Numbered from the stretch's first letter, positions 16,208 to 36,605 are shown. The stretch is DNA of 64,000 nt from Bdellovibrionaceae bacterium UBA2339 (GCA_002344785.1 DDUL01000006.1:2534-66533); one strand, 5' to 3'. The notes: generated from the letters alone by a model not told the origin. Program-made: numbers and translations.

Positions 16208-18003
16208 CGTGAACTCCCCGTGCCTTCTTGAATTCTGTGATACGCATTGTGATGAGTCAGCTGAAAGACTTCACGAACACCCTTGCGCCATTGCACCTCA
16301 ACTTCAAATGGCCCTTTGGCGTCACCAAGTCCAAAATGCAAACGCGGATCGGACTGAGAGTTGAAGGTGTTGGTCGGATAAGCCAGTGCAACACGCTTCC
16401 ACCCGTCGGCGCCGCGAAGCTCGACAAGACTTCCCCAAGTGGCAGGACGCCCCGCCCGATTGCGAAGCTCGACGCCGAGCCAATCTCCCACCTGCTGAGT
16501 TTGGTTCACATACAACATGACGGGTGCGGCACGATTGACGACCACTAAGTCCATCCGCCCATCGTGATTGAAATCAAGCGAGGCAACACCGTAACCATCT
16601 TCAAGATCTGTTACGCCTGAGGCGCGCGCATGATCCTCAAAGCGTCCGCCATCCTGCTGAACGAACAAACAGCTCGCTTGGAAGCTTGAGAGTTGGCGTC
16701 TCGCCGTGGACGGATAATCAATGCTCGGATCCAAGGCGCGCAAAAATGCCGGGATGTCGGTGGCCATCGCGCGCGCATGCCAGAGTGAGCCCGCCTGAGC
16801 TTCAGTCGCACCACGACCGCGAAAGCGGCCATTCACCACAAACAAATCCAAACGCGAATCATTATCGAAGTCGGCCCAGCGTCCCGACCACGTCCACCCG
16901 CAGTTTCCCGTTCCTGTAGAGCGCGAAGCATCGAAGAACCCGCCCTCAGAAGATCGAGTCCACAGCACATTGTTATAGGCCATAAACGGAGGCGCAGAGA
17001 TGTTGCCAACGTACAAATCCAACAATCCATCGCCGTTCCAATCGCCGACATCCGTATTCATGCCGTTGAGGCCATGAAAACGCCTTGGGATGTACTGATC
17101 CGTCACGTCGATGAAGCCCTCTGGGCGATTCAACACCAAACGATCAAACTGATAATCATTGGCTTGATAGAAATCCAGTCGCCCGTCCGCATCGACATCA
17201 AAGAGACTAAAGTTGTTGGCGTAGCTACGAGGCAGATGAGCGATGCTGCGATGTGCTTCCGCGGCGGCTCGAAACTTTCCCGTGCCATCCCCCCACAAGA
17301 TCTGACTCTGTCCTCCCGTCTGTGAAAGCCAAGTCGATCGAAGACGCGGAGTTCGTGGAATTTTCTCCCGCAAATCATCTTCGAACCAATAATTCGCAAG
17401 CATCACGTCCAGGTGGGAATCGCCATCCAAATCGCCGACGTTCAGTCCAACCGCATTGGAGCACACGCCGCCAAATGCGTCGGGAATTTCAGCAAACTGC
17501 GGTGGACCAGCTCGCTGAACTTGCACGAACACTTGATGGCATCCATAGCGCGACATCAGCAGATCAGCTCGTCCATCGCCATTGACATCCGCCGCGATCA
17601 CTCGGGAAACCATGTCACCGGCGCTGAGCCGCCAAGCTCGCGTCACATCTTGCCAGCGTCCGCTGCGTGAACCTTGAAAGATCCGCACTCCAACTTCTTG
17701 ATCGGGACTTGTGAGCACCAGATCTAACTCACCGTCCCCATCTAAATCCGCGACAGCGACGGAAGGATAAATCGCATTGAACTCGAGCACGGCCCGAGGT
17801 GCGTGAGGATTCGGAAAAGCCAGTTGGTGAGTGAAGTGCAATCCGCTTGGCGCCGCCATCTCGGCGAAACTCAAATGTGAAACTTGAGCCGGTCTTCGCG
17901 GACCACCTCCGCCCGGCACATCACGAAGCGCTTCGCGCCCCCAAAGAGTGGCAATGAGACTCAAACCCACGAGCGCCGGTAAGAAGATATCGCGTATTGC
18001 CAC
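16204..18003 (-). CDS. CRTAC1-family protein (FG-GAP/VCBS repeats plus ASPIC/UnbV domain), secreted or anchored
   Basis: 599 aa with an N-terminal signal or anchor. At least six D-x-D/N-x-D-G repeats (ADVNGDGRADLLM, GDLDGDSHLDVMLAN, FDVDADGRLDFYQAN, GDWNGDGLLDLYVGN, ADFDNDSRLDLFVVN, LDFNHDGRMDLVVVN). The C-terminal WLGVELR...GSLVELR...NSQSDPRLHFGLG matches an UnbV_ASPIC pattern. GTG start. Confidence 0.85.
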   Translation of the reverse strand: MAIRDIFLPALVGLSLIATLWGREALRDVPGGGGPRRPAQVSHLSFAEMAAPSGLHFTHQLAFPNPHAPRAVLEFNAIYPSVAVADLDGDGELDLVLTSPDQEVGVRIFQGSRSGRWQDVTRAWRLSAGDMVSRVIAADVNGDGRADLLMSRYGCHQVFVQVQRAGPPQFAEIPDAFGGVCSNAVGLNVGDLDGDSHLDVMLANYWFEDDLREKIPRTPRLRSTWLSQTGGQSQILWGDGTGKFRAAAEAHRSIAHLPRSYANNFSLFDVDADGRLDFYQANDYQFDRLVLNRPEGFIDVTDQYIPRRFHGLNGMNTDVGDWNGDGLLDLYVGNISAPPFMAYNNVLWTRSSEGGFFDASRSTGTGNCGWTWSGRWADFDNDSRLDLFVVNGRFRGRGATEAQAGSLWHARAMATDIPAFLRALDPSIDYPSTARRQLSSFQASCLFVQQDGGRFEDHARASGVTDLEDGYGVASLDFNHDGRMDLVVVNRAAPVMLYVNQTQQVGDWLGVELRNRAGRPATWGSLVELRGADGWKRVALAYPTNTFNSQSDPRLHFGLGDAKGPFEVEVQWRKGVREVFQLTHHNAYHRIQEGTGSSR

Positions 18004-21000: not shown

Positions 21001-23592
21001 CAAGGTCCACGCACGCGAAGTTGCATAAGCCTGCCAAGTTCCGCCGCCGCCACAACCCGCGGTGTTGGTCACATACATCTGCGTGGCACCGGACGCCGCA
21101 AGTGTGAGCGTGACGGAAGTGCTCGTCACCGCCTCAGCTCCCGCGGCAATCGAAAGACTCACGCTCGTCGGCACGGCCGTGTCCTTCACGAAACTTCGCG
21201 ACGCGCTTCCCACGTTGCCGACTAAGTCCGTTTGCGAAGCGGTGAGCGAAACCGTGCCATCTGCAACGCCGGAGAGATCCAGTACAACACTATAGCTTCC
21301 CGAACTACAGGTCGTCGTCGCGCTGATGGCGCCGCTGATCGCGACACTGCTGCCCGATTCACTGCATGTTCCGGCCAAAGTAAATGCCGAGGCCAATGCA
21401 ACGTTGATCGTACTGCCCGCGGCCGGCGAAGCGATGGAGAGCGTGGGGGCAACCGTGTCCTTGGTGAATGCGCGCGTTGTGGAACTTGAATTGCCAGCAT
21501 CATCCGTCTGCGAAAGCGTTAAACTCACGTTGCCATCGGCGACACTCGTAAGATCCAAAGTCGAGCTCATCGTGCCGCCAATGCAAAGCGCCGAGGTCGA
21601 GAGCGCACCTGAGACACTCACGCTCAGACCAGCTTCGCAACTGGCCTCGACGGCAAATGCCGCCGCCTCGCTCGCGTCCATGGCGGTTCCCGCCAGCGGT
21701 GAAGTCCAAGCCAACGAAGGCGCGAGCGTGTCTTTCGAGTAAGTGCGGGACACACTCGTTGAGTTCCCAGCGGCATCCGCATGCGCAACGTTCACCGTCA
21801 CGCTGCCATCCGCTGATCCTGACAAATCAAGATTGGCCGACCAAGCCCCGCTCATGCAGGTGACACTGCCCGAGGCCGCGCCCGAGAAGCTCACATCACG
21901 ACCGTTTTCCGAACAGCTTCCGCTCATGATCCAGTTCGATGCATTGGCGGAATTGATCCAAGCGCTCGCTAAGGGTGCCGCGATCGAGAGTGTCGGCGCG
22001 CTGACATCCTTGTTGAAGCTGCGACTCGCACTGCCGCTATTCCCTGCAACATCCGACTGCGTGAAGTTCAACGTCACATTGCCATCGCTCACCGAGGTGA
22101 GATTCAGATCCACCGACCAAGTTCCCGAATTACAAGTCGTCGACGAAGTCACCGCACCCGTCACACTCACGCTGCGCCCGGACTCCGAGCAGGTGCCACT
22201 GACAGTGAAAGCCGCCACGTTCGATGGCGTGATCCAAGATCCAGAGGCTGGCGAACCCACCGCCAACGTCGGCAGCACGGTGTCCTTTGTGAAATTGCGA
22301 CTGACGGGATCTGCCGCTCCACCCGATGCATAGCTGTGATTCACAGTCAGTGAAATCAGGCCGTCGCTCACGCCACTGAGGTTCAGAGAACTCGACCACT
22401 GCCCTGATGAACAAGTCGCTGAAGCCGACACGGCACCCGAGATCAACACCGGCTGACCTTCGGCACCACAATCACCGCCGACCGTCCACGCGGTGGCATT
22501 GGTCGCGTTCACGTAAGTTCCGGCTGAAGGCAAAGTGAACGTCAGCACAGGCTGAGCTTGATGAACAAAATTTCGTGTCGCCGTCGCCGACGAGTTCCCC
22601 GCCGCATCCTGCTGAATCGCCGAAATGCTCACGCTGCCGTTCGGTGCTGAACTAAAATCCAAATTCAACGACCAGCTTCCGCTTGAGCAAGTCGCCGTTC
22701 CCGCCGCGTCGCCTGTGATCACCACAGTTCCATCTTCCGAACACGTGCCACCGACCGCAAAAGCCGCGTGCTGAGTTTGGTCGATCACAGTTCCTGCGGC
22801 TGGCGAAGTGATCGCCACCGTCGGCGCGACCGTATCCTTTTGCAGTTCGCGCGTGATCACACTCGCGGCATTCCCCGCCGCATCGACATGACGAAACTCC
22901 AAATTCACCGCGCCGTCCGTCGCCGACGAAACATCGACAGCCCAAGTGAAACTTCCCGAGTTGCAAGGCACTGAGCTTGATCCCTGCGGACCTACCACAC
23001 TGACGTAGCGTCCGCTTTCGCTACAAGTTCCACTCACCGCCAAGGCCGTCGCATTTCCCGAGTTCACCCAAGACGATTGCACCGGCGTGCTGACACTCAA
23101 CGTGGGCGCGATGTTGTCGTGAGTGATGTTCACCGACAGACAATCTGAAGTCGGTCCACCAAAGCCACCGTTGCGAAACTGCGCGTAGAGGGTGTTCACC
23201 GCGTTGGCTTGCGTGAGCGTGTACTCAAAGGGCGATCGAATTTGTTGCCAAAGCCCCCCGCGCGTACATCCAGGGATCGTGGTCACGTACATCTCGGTCA
23301 TGTTGGCACCGGTGATTTGCACCAGCACGTTCAAACTCTGCGTGTAGTAAACACCTTGCTCGAGTTTGCCGTTTTCAAGTTTGACGTTGGCGCGAAACGG
23401 AGCGGGCAAGGCCGGACCGTCTTGAGGCGCTTCTTCCTCTTGGTAACAGCCGGTCAAAGAAGCCAAGAAAAGCAGGCCGAGCCAAAGGGCGCGCGCGTGA
23501 AGAGAAAATAATGGGCAAATTGGGCGGCGGATGGCGCAAGCCAAAGCCTGGGAAGCTGTCGTGAAATCGAAAAACGGACCGCGTGACGACAT
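18058..23592 (-). CDS. giant surface lipoprotein/adhesin: Ig-like repeat array plus FN3-like module plus delta-60-repeat beta-propeller region
   Basis: 1844-aa uninterrupted ORF with lipobox LASLTG|C at aa 43-49. Seven tandem modules of about 92 aa have a conserved pattern (SP..G.W.N..N...F.VSGTCSE.G..V.V.GA......C.SG.WS..L.LS...DG.V.......D.AGN......R.F.KDT.AP). About 14 C-terminal units of about 52 aa match the delta-60 repeat pattern (G.NG.V.A......(L/V)(Y/W).GG.FT.YRG..ANR.AK......G.LD..F.P). Confidence 0.85.
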   Translation of the reverse strand: MSSRGPFFDFTTASQALACAIRRPICPLFSLHARALWLGLLFLASLTGCYQEEEAPQDGPALPAPFRANVKLENGKLEQGVYYTQSLNVLVQITGANMTEMYVTTIPGCTRGGLWQQIRSPFEYTLTQANAVNTLYAQFRNGGFGGPTSDCLSVNITHDNIAPTLSVSTPVQSSWVNSGNATALAVSGTCSESGRYVSVVGPQGSSSVPCNSGSFTWAVDVSSATDGAVNLEFRHVDAAGNAASVITRELQKDTVAPTVAITSPAAGTVIDQTQHAAFAVGGTCSEDGTVVITGDAAGTATCSSGSWSLNLDFSSAPNGSVSISAIQQDAAGNSSATATRNFVHQAQPVLTFTLPSAGTYVNATNATAWTVGGDCGAEGQPVLISGAVSASATCSSGQWSSSLNLSGVSDGLISLTVNHSYASGGAADPVSRNFTKDTVLPTLAVGSPASGSWITPSNVAAFTVSGTCSESGRSVSVTGAVTSSTTCNSGTWSVDLNLTSVSDGNVTLNFTQSDVAGNSGSASRSFNKDVSAPTLSIAAPLASAWINSANASNWIMSGSCSENGRDVSFSGAASGSVTCMSGAWSANLDLSGSADGSVTVNVAHADAAGNSTSVSRTYSKDTLAPSLAWTSPLAGTAMDASEAAAFAVEASCEAGLSVSVSGALSTSALCIGGTMSSTLDLTSVADGNVSLTLSQTDDAGNSSSTTRAFTKDTVAPTLSIASPAAGSTINVALASAFTLAGTCSESGSSVAISGAISATTTCSSGSYSVVLDLSGVADGTVSLTASQTDLVGNVGSASRSFVKDTAVPTSVSLSIAAGAEAVTSTSVTLTLAASGATQMYVTNTAGCGGGGTWQAYATSRAWTLPSTNSLNEVYVKFRNAALNESACVSDDIWHDTLAPTWTVGASYPATYNSTTASPWVTFNADAVDDESGVDTYEYAIGTGTSGAAQSDVVTWTEAGSSPFQVTGLSLSIGATYYLHMRVRDFAGNTVVVPHATGWLVDIAAPTLTITSPANGLVTTEIDQPIIGACEAGRLINISYTGDVGGPTAIVCEPNGTYRFAATSFGANGTREVELSMDDGLFGTITAQVSYDLLLDQFAHGTVWSVLNLTDGGKLVGGSFSGFSRYTTRYIAKIKPSDGSRIESGYSSGFNGTVNAVVRLSSGQVLVGGAFTTYRGLIANRIALINADGSLNLSFNSQYLANGTNNTVNAILVDGDSVWLGGAFTRYRGAIANRVTKISLATGQIDATFSPQTGANGAGGTVNTLAMDGTSIWLGGAFTAYHGLIANRVAKVHRDTGALDQTISPQSGDNGAANTVLAIALDGRDVYIGGSFTAYRTLVANRLAKIDGITGALDTSFNPGTGGNGVNNNVRSLAINATHLFVGGDFTTYRGTTVNRLTKISRADFSVDATFNPATGGNGLSSGGVYAMGLEGSSLWIGGTFVAYRGAAASYLARIDTATGDADLNISPASGATLVNNAVYAMDLSRVASDDEIFVGGPFTAGPPEITARNIARLAADGSVDTTFSPQSGANGTNNTVYALSASGDAVYLGGAFTSYRGSVANRVAKVSLSTGALDTTFNPSSGGNGTSGEVRALQLSADGLTLYVGGNFTSYRSATANRVAKVHAQTGVLDTSFNPASGGNGTNNIVYSLWLDGADLYIGGSFGNYRGTAVTRLAKVNSTSGVLDATFHSVTTGANGIVYAIRRSGDWLYLAGAFTTYRGVTANRVAKIHRSDGSVDLVFNPASGGNGVAATAWTLDLDSTHLYVGGQFTTYRGQAANRLARVRLDDGSLDTTLSPASGANGFNSTVYALGWNASASRLTCGGVFTTYRGQNALYLREISPDGSL
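18061..20295 (-). repeat. intragenic tandem array: about 14 delta-60-type repeats of about 156 bp (aa about 1100-1844)
   Basis: Recurring GGxFTxYRGxxANR(V/L)AK(I/V)...G(A/V)LDxxFNPxxGGNG in the translated ORF. Confidence 0.8.
21175..23115 (-). repeat. intragenic tandem array: 7 Ig-like modules of about 276 bp (aa about 160-806 of the adhesin)
   Basis: Periodic recurrence of KDT(V/L)APT(L/V)...SGTCSE...DGxV...AGN in the translated ORF. The array is flanked on both sides by a related module of about 78 aa (..MYVT....GC..GG.WQ... at aa about 84-160 and about 822-900). Confidence 0.8.
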
Positions 23593-25345: not shown

Positions 25346-25509
25346 TTGCGCCCTCCCTTTGAAGCACCTTGAAAGCCCTCAATAGCTCCTGGATGTTGAT
25401 TTTATCCGAGTTCGCGGCCCTCGACCAAAACTTCAACCCGAGGTGACTTTTTCGTAAAGTTTTGCTGAACTTGGAGGCGGGACCTCAAGTCCATCCTGAG
25501 GAGGATCAA

Positions 25510-26181
25510 ATGTCGAAATGTCGCTTGGCCGCGATGGCCCTCGCTTCGATTTCCATAGGTTTAGTGGCCGGTCCGCTCACGGCCAATGCAGCAACGCCAA
25601 GTGCTGCGGCTAAGCCAGCTCTGAAAACGGGTCTTGATGCTCAGATTCCTCAGGGAGTCGCCGCCACGGGTCGCCCAACTTCTCCCTTTTCGTGCGCGGA
25701 TGTTCGCCGAGCTGCGATGCGACTCTCCGCCCACGCGACGAACTTGGCCAATCGGAACACCACTCGGACACCCACGGGCGGCCCCTACAAGCGCCTGGAG
25801 GTCAGCTGCGCCGTGGCCGGTGGCGCCTTCTGCAGCGTGGAACAAAAAAGCGAACTTCGCGTGGCCTATGACCCCAAACACCCTGACGCGGATGGCACGG
25901 GCTATGTTCGCTTCCCTGTCGTGAACGTCGGAACTGAATTCGCGGGCGTCAACTCCGCAGCCACCGAACTGAAGCTGCTCTCCAGTCAAAATGTTTGCGG
26001 CACCGCGAGCATCTCACAAGGCAATGGCGTGTTGATCCGCTACCTGCCCGACTTCGATGTGATCAGCGACACCATCGCCTTTGGGGCCGATGGCAAAATC
26101 GTTTCGTGGACGCGCCTGAACAAGGACGGAAAAATCACGAACATGGCTTTCAACGCCGACGGCAGCATCTCGGGGTTTTAA
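25510..26181 (+). CDS. secreted FlgC-like (flagellar rod protein-like) domain protein
   Basis: ATG 25510 lies 6 nt after GAGGAGGA. Sec-type signal MSKCRLAAMALASISIGLVAGPLTANA|A. The core carries RLSAHATNLANRNTTRTPTGGPYKR and YDPKHPDADGTGYVRFPVVNVGTEF, matching FlgC-type rod-protein motifs. This is followed by a non-FlgC tail of about 55 aa. Confidence 0.6.
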   Translation: MSKCRLAAMALASISIGLVAGPLTANAATPSAAAKPALKTGLDAQIPQGVAATGRPTSPFSCADVRRAAMRLSAHATNLANRNTTRTPTGGPYKRLEVSCAVAGGAFCSVEQKSELRVAYDPKHPDADGTGYVRFPVVNVGTEFAGVNSAATELKLLSSQNVCGTASISQGNGVLIRYLPDFDVISDTIAFGADGKIVSWTRLNKDGKITNMAFNADGSISGF

Positions 26182-26226: not shown

Positions 26227-27051
26227 TCAAAAACGATACGCGACACTGAAGCGCCCCAGCGTCCAACGTGGAAATAGTCTCACCACGCGAATCGCTTGTT
26301 CGACGGACTCGCGATCCTCGCGATCCGTCACGGCGTCTAGAAATGGCGCCGAATTCTTCGTGGTGATCAGCGGCTGAGCCCAACTGAAAAGATCAACGCC
26401 CCAACCCCAATGTGCCTGCTGCAAATTTCCCCAAAGTCGGCGATAGCCGATGCTTCCCACAACTCCCAGGGTCTGCAAATCCACCACATCAAGGCTCGGA
26501 TACACTCCACCGCTCAGTCGACTCAGCAGCGCATCGCCAAGGCGAATTTGAAAGCTGTTAAGGCTCAAGCCCCAGCGAAAATTCCAACCTTGAAGCGCAT
26601 TCGCCGATTCACCAATCGGACTGATGAAGTTCAGCTGCAGACGCTTTTCCGACATCGAACCCAAATCTTTCAAAATCCAAGGAACACTCACGCTGGCGCT
26701 GGCGTAATCCAACTCGACAGTTTCCCCCAGGACTTGCCCCTGCACGGCGACGCCCCACTTGCTCGGCAACAGCAGATCCAATGGAGCATACTGCAGGCGT
26801 ACAGCGCGCATAGATTCCATTTTGTTCGAGGCCACAGGCGGCTGAGAGGACGTGTCCACCGCCTCGCTTGCGGGCTCAGATTGCGCCGCCCCCGCCACAG
26901 TTACCAAACTCAGCGCCGAAGCAGTGAGCATCGCCATCATCACCAAGGCGAAGAACTGCTCGCCGCTTCTCAGGTATCGATTTGGGCTTCGATCATGGTT
27001 TTGAATTTTTCGAAGTTGTGTTTGTTGTCGCATGAGCTGGGATGAGGTCAT
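26227..27051 (-). CDS. hypothetical secreted protein, probable small outer-membrane beta-barrel
   Basis: 274 aa. Signal or anchor FFALVMMAMLTASALSLVTVAGAAQ. Alternating hydrophobic pattern and a C-terminal OMP-type signature ...FSVAYRF (terminal Phe). Confidence 0.5.
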   Translation of the reverse strand: MTSSQLMRQQTQLRKIQNHDRSPNRYLRSGEQFFALVMMAMLTASALSLVTVAGAAQSEPASEAVDTSSQPPVASNKMESMRAVRLQYAPLDLLLPSKWGVAVQGQVLGETVELDYASASVSVPWILKDLGSMSEKRLQLNFISPIGESANALQGWNFRWGLSLNSFQIRLGDALLSRLSGGVYPSLDVVDLQTLGVVGSIGYRRLWGNLQQAHWGWGVDLFSWAQPLITTKNSAPFLDAVTDREDRESVEQAIRVVRLFPRWTLGRFSVAYRF

Positions 27052-27188
27052 CGAGTGGGGCTCCTCCGTTGAGTCAGGAGAAGCTCTCAGGTCACAGCAC
27101 CAACTGGCAACCTCTTCTCAAAGCGTCAGGCCGCCCTCAGGCGGCCCGCTCAGAAACCCAAACTCTCATCTCGAGAATGCGAACTCGC

Positions 27189-28493
27189 TCACTGAGAAGC
27201 CGGAGCGCGCGCCGCCTCAGACTTCGCAGCCTTCTTTTGAGGCGAGGCTTGCCTTTGCGCCTTCGGTGCAGCGGGAGACTTCATCTGGATGGCCTCGACC
27301 GTCTCGCCTTGCGGACCAAACCAGACATCGACGACCTGCACGGACTTACCCTTGACGATCGCCGTACTTCGCTCGCGAAGTTCGGCGCGCGCGGCAACCG
27401 GAGTCACGATGTTCTTTTCATACTTCAATGAAATTTCCGTCAGCCCCTCGTCGGCCAAACTCTTAAGCTCTCCCGGATCTGAAACGCCGTTGGCGTTCGC
27501 GTCGCGCCAGAGCAGAAGCTTGCCGTAATTTTTGTCCTTCGAACTGATCTTTCTGTCTTTGTTGGAATCCAGCTTCGCCAGCGCATCAAAGCCATTGGCG
27601 ATCTTTCGCGACTCGTCCTCACCAAACAGCTCGTCTTTCTCCGAAATTTTGCCATCACCGTTTCGATCCATCGCCAAGATGGCCCAGTTTCCTGCCTCAG
27701 GCCAGTAGATGCTGCCTTTGGTGGGGCTCAAAGGAAAGCGGCTCACGGAAGTGAACTGCGGTCGCTCGTCGCCAAAGAAAACCATGATCGGCGAGAAGTA
27801 TCCGCCACAGAAACCGGTTTGCCCGGGGAAGGCCGAGCGAATTTCAAGTGAAGAGTGATCCGAGCTCAAAGCCCAAGTGGTTGACGACGACAACGGGCCT
27901 GTGTTGGCCATGTAAGTGCCGCCACTCACTCCTTCTTGAAAGAACGAAATCGAGCGAACTGGATGCGCCTGCGCCTTGATGGTCACTTCACCTTTTTCGG
28001 AAAGCGATTCTGTCACGCGAATACCGTCAGGGATCACCATGCTGATCACATTTCCCGCACGCGTGGCCCGAAGACCTGAAGTGCTCAGACCCGTCGCCGT
28101 AATCGGCACGCTTTGCTCGGTGTTGTCAGCCGTTGGAACGACCAAATCACCTTTGAACTGAACTTCGACCGACGCATCTTTGTCGTCGTTGGTTTTCAGA
28201 CCAATCGTCATCTTCACATTCGCATCGGGAGAAAGTGGATTCGCCACACTTCTCAAATTAGTGCCGAAGCAAGATGCATAGAAGCGCACCTGCAACGTCT
28301 TGGTCGCGTCATAGCTTCGCGCCAAGCTGCCATTCATGACGATGTCACTCATGTTCGCCGAAGGCGCCGGAAGCACATCACCGGCCCAAGATTTTTGACT
28401 GAAGTAGAATGAGGCCAAGAGCCCGGCGCTCATCAAGAAAAAGCGGAGCCAAACCATGCCACGCGAATCGATCGCGACTTGCACTTTCGCCAT
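27189..28493 (-). CDS. secreted protein with three EF-hand-like Ca-binding loops
   Basis: Start at ATG 28493 (GGGGGA SD 5 nt upstream) with signal VWLRFFLMSAGLLASFYFSQKSWA. Loops are DRNGDGKISEKDE, DSNKDRKISSKD and DANANGVSDPGELKSLADEGLTEISL...VDVWF. The C-terminus is a Lys/Ala/Pro-rich tail. Confidence 0.7.
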   Translation of the reverse strand: MAKVQVAIDSRGMVWLRFFLMSAGLLASFYFSQKSWAGDVLPAPSANMSDIVMNGSLARSYDATKTLQVRFYASCFGTNLRSVANPLSPDANVKMTIGLKTNDDKDASVEVQFKGDLVVPTADNTEQSVPITATGLSTSGLRATRAGNVISMVIPDGIRVTESLSEKGEVTIKAQAHPVRSISFFQEGVSGGTYMANTGPLSSSTTWALSSDHSSLEIRSAFPGQTGFCGGYFSPIMVFFGDERPQFTSVSRFPLSPTKGSIYWPEAGNWAILAMDRNGDGKISEKDELFGEDESRKIANGFDALAKLDSNKDRKISSKDKNYGKLLLWRDANANGVSDPGELKSLADEGLTEISLKYEKNIVTPVAARAELRERSTAIVKGKSVQVVDVWFGPQGETVEAIQMKSPAAPKAQRQASPQKKAAKSEAARAPASQ

Positions 28494-28521
28494 ATTGTCC
28501 CCCACGTCGCTTTCCACGAGC

Positions 28522-29493
28522 CTAAGGCCGTTTTCGGAAAGTGACTTCATAAGAAAGAATAGCAAGGTTCGTCGCTCGCCGACGAATTATCAGTTGCTCA
28601 ATATCGACACCGACCACCATGGGCGATTGAAAAGCTGAATTAGTCCAAGTACTTCGCACCAATTCGTAAGTTCCTTTAACAGACGCGCGTTCGCGCAAAG
28701 TGTATCGAACTGGTACAACTTTCGTCGCCATCATCATCACCGAAGCACCGCCCACAGGAGGCGCGAGTCGTAAAAACCGATCGGGATCCTGAGCCGAGAC
28801 TTGATCAATCGGAAAACGATAATCAAACACCCCACCCAAATTATTGGCGAGCAAGGTGTTGCCATCGTGAATGCCCAACCAAGATGGCTGGCGAGGCGGA
28901 ACTGTGGGGTCTTGGGTTTTGCCGGCGGGCTTCAACCACACAGGGGCAAATAACAAAAAGGCGTCGCCCTTCACCCAATGCGACCCAAACAGATTTTTCA
29001 TATAATCCAAGTACTGAAAGCCGCGAAACTCCAACTTCCCTGAAGTTCCAAGCGCCGTGGGCGGCTGACTTAAGTACATCGCGGCCGGATCGATCATCTT
29101 AAGTGGCGCATCTGTCGGCGAAGTCAGAAACGTGACTTCCTTAATCTTGCTGGTGGGAGAAATCGTCAAAGTTCTGGTTCGCAAATTCGTCGGAATGTTG
29201 GAGATCTCCGCATCCATATACAGATCAAAGAGATCTCGCCCCTCATCGTCCTTGATCGTCAGTGCCCCAAATGAAAGTGCAGCCTGACTCAAGTCGCGCC
29301 ACAAAAACTGGTCGATCACCACACCCGTCATGCGATCTTCAAGCTTGGCCGTAATGTTGCGAACCCGCTGTGTGTTGTCCAAAAACATATACATCAGAGC
29401 CACGACCACAATGAGGCCAATTCCAGTGGTCATCACCACTTCGGTGAGCGTGACGCCTCGCCGTGACCTGATCGGCAATGCGAACTTCATCAT
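28522..29493 (-). CDS. prepilin-type N-terminal domain protein (PilW/GspJ-like minor pseudopilin)
   Basis: 323 aa. N-terminus MMKFALPIRSRRG|VTLTEVVMTTGIGLIVVVALMYMF has Gly-1, Glu+5 and a hydrophobic helix. Its start makes an ATGA overlap with the upstream gene's stop. Confidence 0.7.
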   Translation of the reverse strand: MMKFALPIRSRRGVTLTEVVMTTGIGLIVVVALMYMFLDNTQRVRNITAKLEDRMTGVVIDQFLWRDLSQAALSFGALTIKDDEGRDLFDLYMDAEISNIPTNLRTRTLTISPTSKIKEVTFLTSPTDAPLKMIDPAAMYLSQPPTALGTSGKLEFRGFQYLDYMKNLFGSHWVKGDAFLLFAPVWLKPAGKTQDPTVPPRQPSWLGIHDGNTLLANNLGGVFDYRFPIDQVSAQDPDRFLRLAPPVGGASVMMMATKVVPVRYTLRERASVKGTYELVRSTWTNSAFQSPMVVGVDIEQLIIRRRATNLAILSYEVTFRKRP

Positions 29494-29936
29494 GAACCAC
29501 CACCGATGATGTAAGTGTAGTCGCGAGCCTCTTCACCGATTGACGGATGCTTGATGCGAACTCGTAGCCGGTAAGCACCCGGCACGAGCGCGTGGGGCTG
29601 CAACACAAAGCCGAGTCGACCCGCGCAATCCGGACACTGATCGACAGGCAATACGCGATCATCATCCCAGGCCCAAGGCAGCTTTGCCGGGTCCAAGAGA
29701 TTTGAAACATGCGTTTCCGATGTGTCGAAGTTCACCTGATACGAAGGCGCGTTCTTGATGATCGTTTGCAGCACGGACTGTAGGGCCTTTTCTCGACCCC
29801 GCGTCGCATTCACTTTTGAAGCTGCACTCAGCGTGGTCTGCGCCGAGGAGATCATCACGAAAATGGCGATACCCGAAATCGCCAAGGCCATAAGAAGTTC
29901 AACCAAACTCAATCCTCTCCGCGAGCGCCAGTTCAT
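29490..29936 (-). CDS. prepilin-type N-terminal domain protein (small minor pseudopilin)
   Basis: Start at ATG 29936 (MNWRSRRG|LSLVELLMALAISGIAIFVMI, Glu+5), with an ATGA overlap to the upstream 870-aa gene. The longer ORF-track start (30089) is rejected. Confidence 0.75.
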   Translation of the reverse strand: MNWRSRRGLSLVELLMALAISGIAIFVMISSAQTTLSAASKVNATRGREKALQSVLQTIIKNAPSYQVNFDTSETHVSNLLDPAKLPWAWDDDRVLPVDQCPDCAGRLGFVLQPHALVPGAYRLRVRIKHPSIGEEARDYTYIIGGGS

Positions 29937-32548
29937 AGCACCACCTCGCTGGAGAGAAACTTGATCTTGAGCCGCTGCGGTCGGCTCTTGCACGACGTGG
30001 CCGAAGCTCCTGGCAACAATCCACAGTCCGGATCGACGGTCGACCATTGCATAGGATTGGACTTGTCGCGCAGAGAGATCGGCAAACAACGGTACTGATC
30101 CGCCAATCGACTGAGATTGGGATAGGGATGCCAGAGCGGATTGTTGATATCAATGCCCGGGCAAGCGCTCGTGGTGCCATACAAAATTCCGAGTCGGCGC
30201 AACTCATCGATCGCCGACTGATTGTGAATGGAGCTCATCGTGATCCCGTGCCGCAGAGCCGAGTCATCAATGACCGAATTGAGCGCAATAATGGTCCCGA
30301 TGATTCGAAGCGGCCGATCCCGAGGCTCGATGGTCAGCAAGTCGCAAGTGAAAAAGCCCGCGACGACCTCGGCCGAGGCTTTGATTCGACACTCCGTCAC
30401 CGTGGAGTAAATCAAGAAGTCGCGCTTCGCCACCGGCGTCGCACTGGAATTGGCCGCATCCAATTCGAGGATGCCGTCGATGGGTCGATATCGCCACGAG
30501 TGCCGACTGGCCGCCGCAAAGGAAACATCCCAGGCCACTGGCGAGAACGAGCTCACCGGCGAACTTGGCGCGCAGGCTTCGTTCAAGGCCGCGTAGTCTT
30601 CGATGACATCCAAAGTTTCCGGAGGCACAGGAAGTTTGCCATCGGTGCGGGCAAAGCTTGTGGGCACGCCGTACTCTTTTTCGATAGTTCCAAAATCATA
30701 GGCGGAGTTACTGTCTTTATAATTGAGCGTGAGTGCGTTGTTGTAGCGAGATTTCGCCGGCTCTTTGTTCAAGTCGCGATTCTGATGGCCCTTGCTGAAC
30801 CCCACATCCAAGCCCCAGACTCGAGCGCGAAATCCCGTCAGCATGTTGAACTGATTCTCAACGCTCACCCTAACATCCACTTGATGCGGCTGATCCTTCA
30901 TATTGAAGACGACTTTAAAGACTTCAATGCGGATGCGCGGCGGATCCTTCTCGGCGGCAATCGCGCGATCGCGAAGCACCTTGAGATCATTGATCTCTTT
31001 GTTGATCGCGTTGATCTGCTTTTCCAAGGCCTCAGCCTTTTTGGGATCCTTTTCGTCTTCGAGTTTGTCTTTGAGTTTGTCTCGATCCTCTTCAAGGTCA
31101 TCAATGCGCTTGATGTAAATGTCTTTGTCCAAAAACTTCGGCGTCAGCACCACCGAGCCGCCGCGCCCTAAGTCCACGCGGACTCGCGCATTCTCGGCTT
31201 TGCTGGGATCCTTGGCGTATTGCTTCACGTAATTTTCATTGAAGCTTTCGATCTCGACGGTGGTCACGTAGTCCCCGCCTTTGACGATCGTCGGCTCCTG
31301 AACATGCGCGGAGTTCCCTCCGCTCTTATGATTGTGATCCACTTTGTGAGGCGTGGTCTGCTCACTGAAGAAATTCAATTCGGTCCAACTGAGTCGGAAA
31401 GTTTCCTGCGACATGTTCGAGGACATCGACTTCCACACCAGCGAAGAGTTGTCCGTCGCCGACAAATTGCTCAGCACTTGGTTTCGCCGAATGCACATTT
31501 GCAGAAGCGACGGATCCGGATTGTAGGCCGGGATGTCGCCGATCAAGGCCTGCAGACCGCGATCGAACTCACCATCTCGCTCCACGCCCGCCAACAAACC
31601 CGAATAGCCGCGAATCGAGGCGAAGTAGTCGTCTCCGGCGCCGCCAGCGGTTTGCGTGGCAAATGGCTGATCACCTCGGCGCAAGATGCCATTTCCAAGC
31701 ACGAGTTTTTCGACAAACGTCGCCGTCGGCGTGCGAAGTTCCTTCTCGATCGGAATATGCACGTCACGATTCACATACACGGGACTTTCAAAGCGAATGC
31801 CCCGCACTTGCGAGCGCTCATAGCCGACAACGGGAAACACATGATTGCCCGGCTTCAAATCCAAGGGCACGGGGCGATCCAAGTACAAATCGCGAGGCAA
31901 AATGAGCGTAAACGCCGATAGCTCTCGTGGCATGACCGCAAACTGCGTGACCAAAGTGACCTTTCGTTCTTCGGTACTTTCCGCATCGGCGATGGTGCCT
32001 GTGACCGTCAGCCGCACATAGCCCTCGCGCCCGCGAATCGGAAGGCGCAAATCCGACGTGCGCTGCACTTTGATTTCGAGTTTTGAAAGCTTACCGGCAC
32101 CTGACTGTTGCAGCGCCGAGGCCAAAGGATGTGAAACAGGAAGCGCTGAAGGCGTCAGTACCGTTGAGAATTCATCCAGCGTCACCGGGCTTCCCAATTT
32201 CAAATCGGGATTGGCGACCTTCAATTCATTGATGTAGGCCACCTGCGGTGGCGTCAGCAAAAGTCTTTCCGTGCTGCGAGGATGATCGAGCAAGCAAATC
32301 TCATCGCGCACCCAATTGTCCGTAAAGCACCAGCGCCGCTTCATACCGGCCGCGGTGTAATTCGCGACACTTTCCAAAACCGCTCGCGACAAAATCAAGT
32401 CGCTTCCGCGCTCGGCCGTATTCTTCAACGACGTCATGGTCTGCAACATCATATTGCCCGCGAAGATCGCGACGCCGGCGATCACCACAACTATCGGCAA
32501 CACATTGGCACGTTTGGATTTCAAACTCGCACGCGCCGCCTCGGTCAT
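29933..32548 (-). CDS. large envelope protein with pilin-like N-terminal anchor (PilX_N-like) and central charged coiled coil
   Basis: The 915-codon ORF is open from TTG 32680. I place the start at ATG 32548 (MTEAARASLKSKRANVLPIVVVIAGVAIFAGNMMLQTM...), which is uncertain. It has a single N-terminal hydrophobic helix without the G-x-x-x-x-E prepilin motif. A KED-rich segment IKRIDDLEEDRDKLKDKLEDEKDPKKAEALEKQINAINKEINDLK is present. It is the first gene of the pseudopilin operon. Confidence 0.6.
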   Translation of the reverse strand: MTEAARASLKSKRANVLPIVVVIAGVAIFAGNMMLQTMTSLKNTAERGSDLILSRAVLESVANYTAAGMKRRWCFTDNWVRDEICLLDHPRSTERLLLTPPQVAYINELKVANPDLKLGSPVTLDEFSTVLTPSALPVSHPLASALQQSGAGKLSKLEIKVQRTSDLRLPIRGREGYVRLTVTGTIADAESTEERKVTLVTQFAVMPRELSAFTLILPRDLYLDRPVPLDLKPGNHVFPVVGYERSQVRGIRFESPVYVNRDVHIPIEKELRTPTATFVEKLVLGNGILRRGDQPFATQTAGGAGDDYFASIRGYSGLLAGVERDGEFDRGLQALIGDIPAYNPDPSLLQMCIRRNQVLSNLSATDNSSLVWKSMSSNMSQETFRLSWTELNFFSEQTTPHKVDHNHKSGGNSAHVQEPTIVKGGDYVTTVEIESFNENYVKQYAKDPSKAENARVRVDLGRGGSVVLTPKFLDKDIYIKRIDDLEEDRDKLKDKLEDEKDPKKAEALEKQINAINKEINDLKVLRDRAIAAEKDPPRIRIEVFKVVFNMKDQPHQVDVRVSVENQFNMLTGFRARVWGLDVGFSKGHQNRDLNKEPAKSRYNNALTLNYKDSNSAYDFGTIEKEYGVPTSFARTDGKLPVPPETLDVIEDYAALNEACAPSSPVSSFSPVAWDVSFAAASRHSWRYRPIDGILELDAANSSATPVAKRDFLIYSTVTECRIKASAEVVAGFFTCDLLTIEPRDRPLRIIGTIIALNSVIDDSALRHGITMSSIHNQSAIDELRRLGILYGTTSACPGIDINNPLWHPYPNLSRLADQYRCLPISLRDKSNPMQWSTVDPDCGLLPGASATSCKSRPQRLKIKFLSSEVVL

Positions 32549-32899
32549 CGATCGCACGAATCCGAGGAGGACCGCTGAGCGCAAACGGCGCGCTTCAGCT
32601 CGCTGCTTGACGCGTTGATAAACTGCTGAGTTCAAAGCTGCTCCCCAAATGCAAATACATGCATTCGGACCCGCCGCCAAACGAGTCCACGTTCGACCTG
32701 TCCCTCTATCCTATGCATCTCTTTGCAGGAGGAAAACCCTACGACTCAAAATAAGACTCGACCTTCGTCGCAAGAGCCATAGAGCACTCGGCGGCCCGGC
32801 CTCGGGGCCTGATGTTTGTCTCTTTCATCGCCGTGAACGCAATTCGCCGCGATTTACCTTGGCGGCTTGAAACTTTGCCCGCTAGCTTTGAATCTCAAA

Positions 32900-34207
32900 A
32901 TGAAACAAGCCACAATTTCTCCATATTCCAAGACCTCTCACTTGGCGCGAATCGCAAGTCACGCGGCCACAGTCTTCGTGCTCTCCGCCGCAAGCTCCGC
33001 CCCAAGTTCATCAGCAAGCGGCGCGGAAGTCGCGCCGGAGTTTCAAAGCTTCCCCACTTGGCGCGCGATGCAACTTGCGGATCCGCGACTCATCGACTCC
33101 GAATACCAAAGCGACATTGAAGCCTACGCCGAGTCGCCACTTCGCCGCTCATTCCTGAACAACAAAAATTTCTTTTCCGTCTCTGCGGGCAGCCTCTCCG
33201 CGACACAGTTCGACTCACGCCTCCAAGCCCAACTCAAGACGCAGCTTTCTGATCGCTACGAGTTTCGCTTTCACCGCGTCGAACATGAAAATTACGAAGA
33301 GGCACTTCGCGCAAGCCTCATCGAATTGGCCTATCGACTGGATCAAGAGTGGTGGCTCTCCGCCTATGGCAGCTTGGAGCGATTCAAGAAAGAAGACGAT
33401 CTCGGCGTCGCCTTGATTTGGCGACAGCAAGACGCCTTCACGAGCGGCGCAAGCAACGATTCATCATCTCCCCACGAAACCTTGGCGCAGGAATTCCGAC
33501 TCTTCGCCACGCAAGTGGACTTCACACGCTCGGAACGCAGCGACTCCGGCGACACCTTCGCGCAAGGCAAAGCGCCTTGGTCATTCGGCTACGTGTACCG
33601 CACGCCCAACTTGGAAAATTATCTTCGCCGCGAAAGCAAAACCGAGTGGATCTCACCTGCCGACGACCGGCGCATGACCCACGAAAAGACCGCCTTCGGT
33701 CACACTCAGCGCGATTCCAACCGAAAGCACGCTGTGCGACTCTTCGCCGATCGCCTCACGCAAAGTCTCACCACAATTTCCAGCGCCACAACTCGAAGCC
33801 TTCGTCGCGATCGCCTCGAGGCTGAATACCGTCGTCGATATTCGCTCGAGGCCACAGGCTCACAAATCGAAGTTGGCCTCAGTTGGGTGCGCCGAGAATG
33901 GCAAAATGAGCTTGATGCACGCATGATTCACACACAAACATCGCCGCTGATCTCTTGGCTAGAAAACGGCGACTCTCCCGGCTGGGAAATCGCTTACGGC
34001 GGCACTTGGTTTCGCGCTTCGGAAGATCTGAGCTTGGGCGCCGCCAATTTGAAGTCAGCAGCTTGGGAGTCTCGATTGAATCTTCGTCGCCTCATCGCAT
34101 TTGATACCCGAGGCCGCCTGGAACTTGCGCTCACATTCGATCTCGATGGCGGCGGCGAGTTCGGAACCTTCGAAGGTGGCCACGGACAGTTTGTCGTGGA
34201 GTTTTGA
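32900..34207 (+). CDS. hypothetical secreted protein, probable outer-membrane beta-barrel
   Basis: Start at ATG 32900 (MKQATISPYSKTSHLARIASHAATVFVLSAASSAPSSSASG). The body is beta-rich with many short alternating segments. The C-terminus ...GHGQFVVEF has the terminal-Phe OMP signature. Divergent from the pseudopilin operon. Confidence 0.5.
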   Translation: MKQATISPYSKTSHLARIASHAATVFVLSAASSAPSSSASGAEVAPEFQSFPTWRAMQLADPRLIDSEYQSDIEAYAESPLRRSFLNNKNFFSVSAGSLSATQFDSRLQAQLKTQLSDRYEFRFHRVEHENYEEALRASLIELAYRLDQEWWLSAYGSLERFKKEDDLGVALIWRQQDAFTSGASNDSSSPHETLAQEFRLFATQVDFTRSERSDSGDTFAQGKAPWSFGYVYRTPNLENYLRRESKTEWISPADDRRMTHEKTAFGHTQRDSNRKHAVRLFADRLTQSLTTISSATTRSLRRDRLEAEYRRRYSLEATGSQIEVGLSWVRREWQNELDARMIHTQTSPLISWLENGDSPGWEIAYGGTWFRASEDLSLGAANLKSAAWESRLNLRRLIAFDTRGRLELALTFDLDGGGEFGTFEGGHGQFVVEF

Positions 34208-34292
34208 ACTGTGGTGTTTTGAACTGCGGTGTTTTGATCTGTGAGGTTTTGATTTTGGGTGCTTGGAAATGCGGAGGATTGATCTGTGGAGG
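34201..34292. repeat. six degenerate tandem repeats of about 15 bp (TTTTGAWCTGYGGWG-like)
   Basis: Units: ttttgaactgtggtg / ttttgaactgcggtg / ttttgatctgtgagg / ttttgattttgggtg / cttggaaatgcggagg / attgatctgtggagg. The array begins on the stop codon of the 32900-34207 gene. Confidence 0.75.
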
Positions 34293-34347
34293 ACTGATCG
34301 ACAAAGATCCGCAGGCCTACGCGCACTCTTGGTTTGGTTTTGGGCAT

Positions 34348-34531
34348 CATCCGCGCTGGCGCGGGTCACGGCGCGTTGTTTGAAGTTCGCCGTTGAGAGT
34401 TGGTGACGCGCAGAACTCGGACCTCATCCGCGCTGGCGCGGGTCACAGTGCGTTGTTTGAAGTTCGCCGTTGAGAGTTGGTGACGCGCAGAACTCGGACC
34501 TCATCCGCGCTGGCGCGGGTCACAGTGCGTC
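34348..34531. repeat. 77-bp tandem repeat, 2 full copies plus a third copy of about 30 bp
   Basis: The unit catccgcgctggcgcgggtcac(gg/ag)(c/t)gcgttgtttgaagttcgccgttgagagttggtgacgcgcagaactcggacct starts at 34348, 34425 and 34502. Copies 1 and 2 differ at only 2 positions. Confidence 0.9.
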
Positions 34532-34575: not shown

Positions 34576-34682
34576 TGGCGCCTGCTCGCGACTGCACAAT
34601 CAAAGAGGGCGCAGAGGCAGGTTCCGTCCAACCTGCCGCCACTTCAGTGGCGCCTGCTCGCGACTGCTCGCAGAGGCAGGTT
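34576..34682. repeat. direct repeat pair (tggcgcctgctcgcgactgc ... cagaggcaggtt) whose second copy abuts the tRNA-Cys 3' end
   Basis: The 20-mer occurs at 34576-34595 and 34648-34667. The 12-mer occurs at 34612-34623 and 34671-34682. Between them lies a perfect hairpin GGCAGGTT-ccgtcc-AACCTGCC (34616-34637). Confidence 0.85.
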
Positions 34683-34755
34683 GGAGGTGGTAGAGGGATT
34701 CGCACCCCCGTACGCGGATTTGCAGTCCGCTGCCTAACTCCTCGGCCATACCACC
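34682..34755 (-). tRNA. tRNA-Cys (anticodon GCA)
   Basis: The reverse complement folds by hand. Acceptor GGTGGTA/TACCACC, 3-bp D stem GCC/GGC, anticodon stem GCGGA/TCCGC with loop CTGCAAA. The T arm is GGGGG-TGCGAAT-CCCTC (one G-U pair), the discriminator is U as expected for tRNA-Cys, and CCA is encoded. Confidence 0.9.
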
Positions 34756-34814: not shown

Positions 34815-36605
34815 TCACAATGTAGGGGCTTCGCCGTCTGAGGTCAAATCCGTCCTCGCCAGAGTTGCCCAGGGACTTGGCAGTTCACGCCGCCCCAGCT
34901 CCGCAAAACTCAGAACCGTCCAAAGCCTGGCCTCTAGGCGATGCTCCTCGCCCACCTCCTCACACTGATCCAGATCTGCGAGGGCTCGGGCGACTCTTTC
35001 CTGAGCCCAAGCCCTTCGCCCCTGAGACAAGATCAAAGCTTGCGCCTGCTGCTCCGCCTTCGCCCTCCACATCGCCTTGGCCTCGGCCCCCTCACCCATT
35101 TCCGACTCAATCCGCTTTCGACGAAACTGCAGTCCGGCGACACACAGCGAACGAAGCTCAGCCAGAGAATACAAACAGTCGTGATGACGACCGCTCGATG
35201 GCGAACTGGCCACCACATCCGTTGGCTGCAGTTGAAGTCCACTCGGCAGGCCCAGCATCACGAAGTGATCCATCACCGGCGATCGCCAAGTTTGCTCTCG
35301 CAAGGAGCGAAGGCGTGAAGGACATCGACAGGCTGAGCTGAGACTCAAGTCGCTTTGTCCGCACGCGCACAGGCTACCCGACGCCAAGATCTGCGATTCA
35401 AACTTCCAACGCCTTCGCTGCGTAGAGCGTGAGATCTCCCAAGAGCCTTGCGCCATCGGCGCCATCAGACTGAGTCGCACATTTTCATTCCATCGCTCCC
35501 ATTCTTCCAGCAGCAGACACCCACCACGCACTCGCGCCAAAGCTCCGGCTCGAGGCGAGCTTCCTCCACCTAAGAGCCCGGCGATGGTCAGCGGTGAAGT
35601 CGGCGCCTCAAGCGGCAGCTTCGGCCAACTTTGTTCGTCGCCCTCGGCACTCGTACCGCGCTCGGCGCGTAGCTCGGCACTCGACTCCGCGAACTCGGCA
35701 AAGGATCGCAAATCGTGAACCAACCGAAGCAGCGAAGCTAAGCCCATCGAATGCGGCCCCAACACCAAGGTGTGAAAGCGCCCGAGCGCGGATGCGATCA
35801 CAAAGCGTGCGGCTCGACGATTCAAACTCAGTCCCGCCCAAGCCTCACTACACTGAGCTTGAGGATCCCCATGACCGAGTTCACGGGATCTCTGCCTCGA
35901 ACTCACAGCGCTCGAACTGCGATGGGCATCGTGAAGTCGCTGCGTTTTCTGTAACAGCTCCGTGAGATCCGCAAGTTCACTGAGCCGAGCCGGGCCGAAG
36001 CATCGAAATCGCGAACTTGCGGAATCGCCTGGTGCGACCTCGTGCTCATAGCCCATTGAAAGAAGGCCTTGGAGGTCAGTCGCCATCGGCTCAGGCAAAA
36101 TGAAGCTGGGCCAGATCTTCGCACGCCGAGAGGCCTCGACGGCCTTTGCCTCAGCATCCGCCTCCCCAAGATCCTCCAACAACCCCATTTCCGACACTAA
36201 CTGTCGCGCAAGTTCCGTCGCACTTTGATCGCGAACTTCCGGCATTTTGACTTCACCACCCAGACTCAGATCACCCCAGACCCAAGGCTCGGCACCCAAA
36301 GCTTCAGCTCCCTTCACTTGTTCCGTGAGCCACAAAACACCCAGTGCAACGGGCAAATCCAAGCCACACATACTGATGCGTTCGGCACGCGGAGAAATAT
36401 CCACAAGCAGCTTCAAGCCGCGAGGAAAGCGAAATCCAAGCGAGCGAATGGCCGACTTCACTCTCAAGGCCACGTCGCGAAGTGCGGGATCTCGCCCCCC
36501 TAAAAACACGATTTGCGGTAGTCCCGGAACCCACCGCATCTCCAAACGAATGGCCTTCCAAGCATCAGCTTGTTTCACCCAAGTTCTCATTGTGATCATC
36601 GACAT
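34815..36605 (-). CDS. ComM/YifB (Mg-chelatase-like) family paralogue with degenerate ATPase motifs
   Basis: 596 aa. The N-terminus (IRLEMRWVPGLPQIVFLGGRDPALRDVALRVKSAIRSLGFRFP...LLVDISPRAERISMCGLDLPVALGVL) is colinear with the Lon-like ChlI domain of ComM. The Walker A position reads LVLGPHSMGLAS instead of GPPGSGKT, and the Walker B position reads LLLEE instead of FLDE. The downstream ILASGSLCACG...CRCPSRL region is colinear with NPCPCG...C.C. Confidence 0.65.
   Translation of the reverse strand: MSMITMRTWVKQADAWKAIRLEMRWVPGLPQIVFLGGRDPALRDVALRVKSAIRSLGFRFPRGLKLLVDISPRAERISMCGLDLPVALGVLWLTEQVKGAEALGAEPWVWGDLSLGGEVKMPEVRDQSATELARQLVSEMGLLEDLGEADAEAKAVEASRRAKIWPSFILPEPMATDLQGLLSMGYEHEVAPGDSASSRFRCFGPARLSELADLTELLQKTQRLHDAHRSSSAVSSRQRSRELGHGDPQAQCSEAWAGLSLNRRAARFVIASALGRFHTLVLGPHSMGLASLLRLVHDLRSFAEFAESSAELRAERGTSAEGDEQSWPKLPLEAPTSPLTIAGLLGGGSSPRAGALARVRGGCLLLEEWERWNENVRLSLMAPMAQGSWEISRSTQRRRWKFESQILASGSLCACGQSDLSLSSACRCPSRLRSLREQTWRSPVMDHFVMLGLPSGLQLQPTDVVASSPSSGRHHDCLYSLAELRSLCVAGLQFRRKRIESEMGEGAEAKAMWRAKAEQQAQALILSQGRRAWAQERVARALADLDQCEEVGEEHRLEARLWTVLSFAELGRRELPSPWATLARTDLTSDGEAPTL

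Follow-up and report, generated by a model that had tools for sequence, protein, structure and literature searches.

The 64,000-nucleotide stretch of Bdellovibrionaceae bacterium UBA2339 analyzed here (GCA_002344785.1, DDUL01000006.1:2534-66533; hereafter the window) contains a cassette of four co-directional genes, designated A to D, that is conserved as a unit in predatory Bdellovibrionota and is restricted to them. Genes A, B and C encode pilin-like proteins, while D encodes a predicted Sec-exported protein with the fold of the SPM domain known from FrpC. On balance, though only somewhat so, it seems probable that the cassette encodes an accessory set that forms the tip of, or primes, a PilD-dependent type IV filament in the Bdellovibrionota, and that this filament is most likely the type IVa pilus (T4aP).

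All four genes lie on the minus strand, and open reading frame (ORF) calls reproduce the coordinates given in an initial annotation of this DNA. Gene A (29933-32548) encodes a giant minor-pilin-like protein of 871 amino acids (aa) counted from the first ATG, which corrects the 870 aa originally reported. Gene B (29490-29936) encodes a prepilin-type minor pilin of 148 aa, the smallest subunit, and gene C (28522-29493) a second prepilin-type minor pilin of 323 aa with a large globular part. Gene D (27189-28493) encodes a protein of 434 aa. The spacing is also as first described: A overlaps B and B overlaps C by 4 nucleotides (nt) each, with the sequence ATGA, while C and D are separated by 28 nt and D is followed by a gap of 137 nt. 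A GC-rich hairpin (GGCCGCC-TGAG-GGCGGCC; 27129-27147, minus strand) is located 42 nt 3' of the D stop codon. It was read from the sequence and was flagged by TRF as well, but it has no U-tract and was not called by the terminator scan, and the promoter and terminator scan was altogether uninformative. The hairpin may mark the end of the operon. Protein A of the window is 100% identical to the NCBI entry 'MAG TPA: hypothetical protein PLZ57_15680'.

An A-family pattern, scanned against a single genome for each GTDB species, yielded 75 loci, and 78 loci in total were analyzed. Iterative hidden Markov model (HMM) searches, run on every ORF of these 78 loci, recovered A, B, C and D across the whole set. 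Gene order was counted only in the 64 cassettes that are flanked by 1.7 kb or more on either side. The order is ABCD in 57 of these and DABC in 7, with D present in 64/64. Every well-flanked cassette thus keeps A-B-C together with an adjacent D, which settles in favor of a true unit the question of whether the gene set is conserved in related genomes. The 75 loci are labeled Bdellovibrionota, save for one metagenome-assembled genome (MAG) labeled 'Bacillota' (L026, JBLMWG010000042.1); its contig carries one complete A-B-C-D cassette, and the label is probably a binning error, lateral transfer being a less likely alternative. Complete genomes contain one to three cassettes, and the whole cassette is duplicated in tandem in L033, L044, L047, L052 and L062.

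The surroundings of the cassette vary. The order F-A-B-C-D-E, which includes the two genes flanking the cassette in the window, is retained in L001, where protein A is 82% identical to that of the window; more distant genomes retain just A-B-C-D. The orthologs in B. bacteriovorus are 25-28% identical and are sited between His_Phos and HSP20 genes, and other copies occupy other, unrelated housekeeping contexts. Database names for D are only 'EF-hand domain-containing protein' or 'hypothetical', and mapping to HD100 locus tags by way of cluster members gave no others. When the flanking ORFs were clustered, no further gene family accompanied the cassette in more than 16 of the 78 loci, and a conserved fifth cassette gene was rejected on this basis. 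The conserved unit is the four genes A to D and not six.

This distribution bears on the proposal, made in the initial annotation, that all six genes form a self-contained and undescribed surface-filament or secretion apparatus of which E and F are the outer-membrane parts. Gene E (26227-27051, minus strand; 274 aa) lies past D, and gene F (32867-34207, plus strand) is divergent from A. The C-terminal endings that led to their description as beta-barrels are as reported (FSVAYRF in E and FVVEF in F). Both proteins have signal-like N-termini and a C-terminal Phe with an alternating hydrophobic pattern, and both are kept beside the cassette in L001. They are at most candidate barrels: neither has a family match in Pfam or NCBIfam, and a crude test of beta-strand amphipathicity was uninformative, as it did not separate them from cytosolic controls. 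Among the 78 loci, homologs of E, of F and of a nearby FlgC-like ORF are confined to the window and L001. E and F are lineage-specific neighbors rather than parts of the module, and the idea that they bracket it does not hold. Together with the unrelated housekeeping genes around the cassette elsewhere, the lack of an accompanying family and the lack of machinery genes in the cassette itself, these comparative data largely refute an autonomous apparatus, which must be considered most improbable. The FlgC-like ORF (25462-26181, plus strand) encodes 239 aa with a signal-peptide-like N-terminus, is located away from flagellar genes, and matches FlgC (TIGR01395) below threshold (E-value 7.7e-15, 55 bits against a cutoff of 102).

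Other genes in the window are housekeeping genes (uvrB/C, cysS, gltX, recG and xerD). No filament or secretion machinery was seen in the 64 kb on inspecting the ORF translations, which were not scanned against family libraries; by this inspection alone, the original observation that the window contains no major pilin, ATPase, platform protein, secretin or prepilin peptidase is upheld. Genes of a gsp operon (GspD/E/F/G/L/M) were likewise absent from the window by ORF inspection and from the flanks of four other, Pfam-annotated loci. The module was correctly placed away from filament machinery, in variable neighborhoods of housekeeping genes. Since the cassette has no ATPase, platform protein, secretin or peptidase of its own, it must be an accessory set for a machine encoded elsewhere.

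Protein A is the largest of the components. An exhaustive HMMER search was needed to assemble its family; word-indexed searches, whether with a single sequence or with a profile, returned only the query and one 82% relative, probably because the low-complexity coiled coil swamps the candidates. The family comprises 285 representatives at 50% identity, with lengths between 871 and 1500 aa. Its leader is basic and ends in Gly at position -1 of the predicted prepilin cleavage site in 102 of 103 aligned members, with a hydrophobic segment next. Position +5 is occupied by Gln, Leu, Met, Thr or Tyr, and neither Glu nor Asp is among the eight commonest residues there. Scans with Pfam and NCBIfam gave no N_methyl match in the family. 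The tip subunits GspK and PilX are characterized by such a Glu5-less N-terminus, and the combination of Gly-1, no Glu+5 and, in the model, a 55-residue N-terminal helix suggests that A fits this subclass, with cleavage predicted. If so, these would be the largest Glu5-less tip subunits known to us. The copy in the window is the sole member with Ala at -1 (Ala14; GCC codon at 32507-32509, minus strand), reading SKRA/NVLP where its closest relative, P0002, has SLRG/NTLP (the slash marks the predicted cleavage site). The initial view that A has no prepilin motif thus needs correcting at the level of the family, which has Gly-1 though no Glu+5.

An AlphaFold2 (AF2) model of A, built on an alignment of 78 sequences, has a pLDDT of 88.6 and a pTM of 0.78. 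Its elements are, in order, the 55-residue helix (residues 16-70), four long beta-strands (126-207), regions of short beta-strands, a central coiled-coil hairpin (475-534) and C-terminal beta domains. The protein contains ten conserved Cys, and the beta domains are Cys-rich. The N-terminal helix followed by four strands is consistent with a type IV pilin core, as judged from the model.

Proteins B and C are prepilin-type proteins with class III signal peptides, as was first noted from their RRG motifs. B begins RRG/LSLVE and exceeds both curated cutoffs, scoring 25.6 bits against N_methyl (PF07963, cutoff 21.2) and 20.7 bits against TIGR02532 (cutoff 16.3). In the B family Gly-1 is present in 71/71 members, Glu+5 in 70/71 and an N_methyl match in 61/71. 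C carries RRG/VTLTE; its own N_methyl score in the window is 13.9 bits, under the 21.2 cutoff, yet 70 of 71 members of its family match the model, 69/71 having Gly-1 and 70/71 Glu+5. A nearly invariant CxxC was observed in B (C101 and C104, CPDC in the window; residues 101-104, 29625-29636). This would be unusual as a D-region disulfide of a pilin, and might bind metal.

Pfam and NCBIfam scans of every A, B and C family member produced scattered sub-threshold matches to many pilin models, from which no specific minor-pilin family emerged. Matches to T2SSI/J/K (Pfam) and to gspH/I/J (TIGR01708/01707/01711) were all sub-threshold and restricted to the N-terminal helix. PilW (PF16074) matched 1 of 71 C members with an E-value of 0.18, and C belongs to neither GspJ nor PilW; type_IV_pilV (TIGR02523) gave weak N-terminal matches only, in 29 B and 8 C members. 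TadE had no recurrent match in the scans of the B and C families, in which Flp_Fap appeared in one or two members at E-values above 0.003; PilX_N (PF14341) and the PilY1/PilC propeller (PF05567) had no match in A or D. Profile searches of PDB sequences with the three families found only pilin N-terminal helices or coiled coils and no GspI, GspJ or GspK, the matches of the B family being confined to the N-terminal pilin helix. Similarly, hhalign comparisons with E. coli GspG-K gave probabilities of 80-93% over the helix but under 3% over the globular parts. By sequence, then, the proteins do stand outside the standard PilV/W/X/Y1 and GspH-K families. The broader statement that none of the products matches a recognized family is true of A, B and C in their globular parts, but not of D, which contains the FrpC SPM domain (PF26745). 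Assigning I-, J- and K-type roles to the three pilin-like proteins draws on their number, size and Glu5 status rather than on homology, and is by analogy.

Protein D has a signal-peptide-like N-terminus and no match to RTX repeats. Its layout consists of an N-terminal beta domain (approximately residues 63-225), an SPM-like domain (approximately 230-395; 27309-27806, minus strand) and a disordered tail rich in Lys, Ala and Pro. All 82 homologs of D carry a precomputed Pfam assignment to SPM (PF26745), and the full-length homologs bearing an organism name are from Bdellovibrio or Bdellovibrionales. Residues 264-359 match the FrpC SPM (6sjw/6sjx) in phmmer with an E-value of 1.9e-11, and the profile of the D family matches FrpC with an E-value of 4.5e-28. 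In the AF2 model of D (pLDDT 79.5) the C-terminal half matches the whole SPM domain of 6sjx by Foldseek (E-value 2.6e-10, TM-score 0.72 over 178 columns), whereas no significant structural match was found for the N-terminal beta domain. Three EF-hand-like loops are retained (276-288, 309-320 and 331-342), and the two invariant Trp residues, W264 and W329, align with the stacking pair W451 and W519 of FrpC. The earlier description of D as a secreted protein with three EF-hand-like loops is supported in both respects, and the loops can now be assigned to SPM.

In FrpC, calcium causes the SPM to fold, which puts the Asp414-Pro415 bond under strain; cleavage there yields an aspartic anhydride that can link to lysines (Kuban et al. 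2020, PMC7078468). The position in D equivalent to this bond, as indicated by the fold match, the spacing to W264 and the FrpC numbering in PMC7078468, would be Ser234-Pro235 (codons at 27789-27794, minus strand). Ser-Pro is invariant in 75 D sequences, Asp is never found there, and the dipeptide lies within the near-invariant segment FPGQTGFCGGYxSPLMVFF. The fourth, N-terminal calcium site of FrpC (D419/D421/D423/G424) is also lost, its places in D being taken by F239, by D or G, by a variable residue and by R244. As the anhydride requires an Asp side chain, which is never present in D, the canonical anhydride chemistry is excluded, and the conservative reading is that the domain could act as a calcium-dependent folding switch.

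The conservation of the site raises the alternative that D is an active self-processing protein, in which the SPM variant responds to calcium by cleaving at or beside Ser234-Pro235, either releasing the N-terminal domain or linking it covalently to the tip complex or the prey surface. The SPM fold is complete, and Ser-Pro and the preceding GFCGGY are invariant in the 75 sequences, against a mean column identity of only 27% in the D alignment. Ser-dependent autoproteolysis by an N-to-O acyl shift is moreover established in other protein families. The equivalent position in FrpC is the scissile bond, but SPM processing has been demonstrated only for Asp-Pro proteins (PMC7078468). Besides the missing Asp side chain, the N-terminal calcium site that is said to twist the scissile amide in FrpC is not conserved. 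Self-processing of D is judged unlikely. A more specific version, and one that is less likely still, is that D represents a new chemical variant of SPM, in which extracellular calcium triggers autoprocessing at Ser-Pro, an N-to-O acyl shift at residue 233/Ser234 being one conceivable route, and a domain is released or covalently locked to the pilus tip or to a prey molecule. If this were true, the pilus of the predator would bear a calcium-triggered covalent grappling hook.

Two distant SPM proteins outside the cassette were also observed to lack Asp-Pro: P0081 (615 aa) has Ser-Pro (PPSPILINF), and P0083 (645 aa) has neither. P0083 is the only one among the SPM matches to carry PF00353. Non-cleaving or differently cleaving variants of the domain may, from these sequences, be widespread.

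The evidence favoring a tip or priming set comprises the class III motifs and N_methyl matches, the N-terminal helix and four strands of the A model, the start-stop overlaps of A, B and C, the retention of A-B-C plus D in all well-flanked cassettes, the one to three copies per genome, the variable housekeeping surroundings without machinery, and the signal peptide, SPM fold and EF-hand-like loops of D, along with the Myxococcus tips described below. Such a set could belong to any of the three kinds of type IV filament machine reported for B. bacteriovorus, namely T4aP, the type II secretion system (T2SS) and Tad, which share one PilD peptidase that acts on PilA as well as on Flp1 (bioRxiv 10.64898/2026.07.08.737194). 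Among these, T4aP is favored because the N_methyl-type signals of B and C are typical of T4aP and T2SS pilins, and because A, given its size and its exposed coiled coil, is better matched to an extracellular filament than to a periplasmic pseudopilus.

Alternatively, the cassettes could encode alternative tip complexes of the T2SS pseudopilus, each selecting or pushing out different hydrolytic enzymes during predation. One Glu5-less subunit accompanied by two Glu5-bearing ones is exactly the logic of GspK/I/J, and GspK is a calcium-binding protein. B has weak, sub-threshold matches to the gspI and gspJ models, and a T2SS is present in B. bacteriovorus (bioRxiv 10.64898/2026.07.08.737194). However, these matches do not extend past the N-terminal helix, and GspG/H and competence pilins are matched at least as well. 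Minor pseudopilins of the T2SS are also normally encoded within the gsp operon, unlike the cassette genes at the loci inspected, and a tip of 871-1500 aa with an exposed coiled coil is less suited to a periplasmic piston than to an extracellular adhesive filament. A role in the T2SS is thus rather unlikely.

A parallel to the Tad pilus comes from another predator. The Kil pilus of Myxococcus carries interchangeable tips for contact with prey, which are built from scattered, paralogous trios of minor pilins; one member of every trio is a giant subunit that combines two long helices with a beta scaffold and numerous disulfides (PMC12075869). The cassettes might likewise be tips of a Tad (Kil-like) pilus needed for prey invasion, comparable to KilL/M/N Tip1-4, as they too combine one giant pilin of this description with one short and one medium pilin in scattered paralogous sets. 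The type of motif is no bar to this, since Flp1, the Tad pilin of B. bacteriovorus, is itself a substrate of PilD (bioRxiv 10.64898/2026.07.08.737194). On the other hand, B and C have the N_methyl motif (GFTLxE-type) and not N-termini of the TadE/F type, without recurrent TadE or Flp matches, and the tip HMMs of Herrou et al. are restricted to Myxococcota (PMC12075869). The Bdellovibrio 'Tip' proposed by the same authors is Bd0114/0115/0148, a separate locus beside the tad genes (PMC12075869), and identity of the cassette with that tip was rejected for this reason. Use by the Tad pilus is accordingly judged unlikely.

As parts of a T4aP tip set, A, B and C would be processed by the prepilin peptidase and held together by a bundle of their N-terminal helices. 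If GspK-GspI-GspJ and PilX-PilV-PilW are taken as models, A would sit at the apex, as it has no Glu+5, and would present its coiled-coil hairpin and its disulfide-rich beta domains to the prey as the contact surface, while B and C, with Glu+5, would link A to the filament. D would be exported by Sec, fold on calcium by means of its SPM-like domain, and join the complex as PilY1 does. The paralogous cassettes, one to three per genome, would then supply interchangeable tips.

Several observations weigh against such a tip set. The cassette has no fourth pilin of the GspH/FimU type, and its gene order, K-I-J-partner, is unlike that of textbook operons (fimU-pilVWXY1E and gspHIJK), as had been pointed out initially. 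In sequence, A, B and C do not resemble, over their globular parts, GspH-K, PilV/W/X or any minor-pilin family in Pfam or NCBIfam, and the Foldseek search with the A model gave no significant match in PDB or BFVD, not even to GspK. Given its Ala-1, the A protein of the window may be processed poorly or not at all. Finally, the evidence does not tell T4aP from T2SS or Tad.

Among the closest known systems are GspK-I-J and PilX-V-W-PilY1. Like these, the cassette combines a large Glu5-less subunit with a small and a medium subunit bearing Gly-1 and Glu+5, in translationally coupled genes, and as with PilY1 an adjacent gene encodes a non-pilin, calcium-binding partner that is Sec-exported (both properties are predicted in the case of D). 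It differs in that sequence similarity to GspK-I-J and PilX-V-W is undetectable past the N-terminal helix, in the size of A (871-1500 aa, compared with approximately 200-330 aa for PilX/GspK), in having no GspH/FimU-type subunit and a K-I-J-partner order, and in being unlinked to machinery and present in one to three copies. PilY1 has a beta-propeller where D has the SPM fold. A side observation concerns L080 (11532-13916), in which the D gene (519 aa) overlaps the following gene, encoding a 794-aa protein with a PQQ-type beta-propeller. As the C-domain of PilY1 is also a propeller, this protein might, by analogy, be an extra tip partner in that lineage.

A four-gene arrangement is also known as the Verru_Chthon cassette (TIGR02596/02598/02599/02600), which includes prepilin-type proteins, one of them large, and occurs in several copies away from filament machinery. 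Some B and C members weakly match its proteins B and C, below threshold and over the N-terminal helix only; it belongs to another phylum, and no SPM-fold member is known there. With KilL/M/N Tip1-4 of Myxococcus (Herrou et al. 2025, PMC12075869) the cassette shares the presence of several paralogous three-pilin sets scattered in the genome of a predator, and the single-chain architecture of A was compared with that of KilN through the published description only. The Kil proteins are TadE/F/G-like and restricted by HMM to Myxococcota (PMC12075869), whereas the cassette has N_methyl-type signals and a fourth gene with an SPM fold. From FrpC/ApxIVA SPM (6SJW/6SJX, PF26745), with which it shares the whole-domain fold, the three EF-hand-like loops and the Trp pair, D is distinguished by the invariant Ser-Pro in place of the scissile Asp-Pro and by the unconserved fourth calcium site. 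In addition, FrpC is an RTX protein exported by type I secretion, while D has a Sec signal peptide, no RTX repeats and a gene alongside those of pilins.

Some other features of the window were noted. A 15-bp repeat of 3.8 copies (34196-34252) overlaps the stop codon of F, and a 77-bp tandem repeat (34347-34530; 2.4 copies, 98% identical) is located between F and a tRNA-Cys gene (34682-34755, minus strand). A protein of 596 aa (34815-36605, minus strand) matches the YifB/ComM Mg-chelatase-like ATPases weakly, at 78 bits against a cutoff of 362, and may be a degenerate or divergent member of that family. Another, of 599 aa (16204-18003, minus strand), contains repeated motifs of the D-x-D-G-D/N type that are FG-GAP/VCBS-like by eye. 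It adjoins a predicted secreted protein of 1844 aa (18058-23592, minus strand) with many immunoglobulin-like repeats and a long propeller-like repeat region.

Full-text literature searches found no published description of the cassette, in agreement with its first designation as undescribed. For the Bdellovibrio T4aP or T2SS, no minor-pilin or adhesin set is described in the literature searched, in which only a tip encoded at the Tad locus, Bd0114/0115/0148, has been proposed. Minor-pilin tip complexes are of a known kind; what is new here is three pilin families, a giant Glu5-less subunit, a partner with an SPM fold, and the restriction to Bdellovibrionota. The three pilin-like families have globular domains with no detectable relatives. 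The SPM fold, found only in RTX toxins in the literature searched, is now seen in Sec-exported proteins proposed to be pilus-associated, and its invariant Ser-Pro variant bears on SPM-based protein-ligation tools (NeissLock). Bdellovibrio and its relatives depend on type IV filaments for prey attachment and entry. A conserved, multi-copy and lineage-specific cassette of this kind could supply the prey-contacting end of the filament, and its paralogous sets are a candidate source of differences in prey range.

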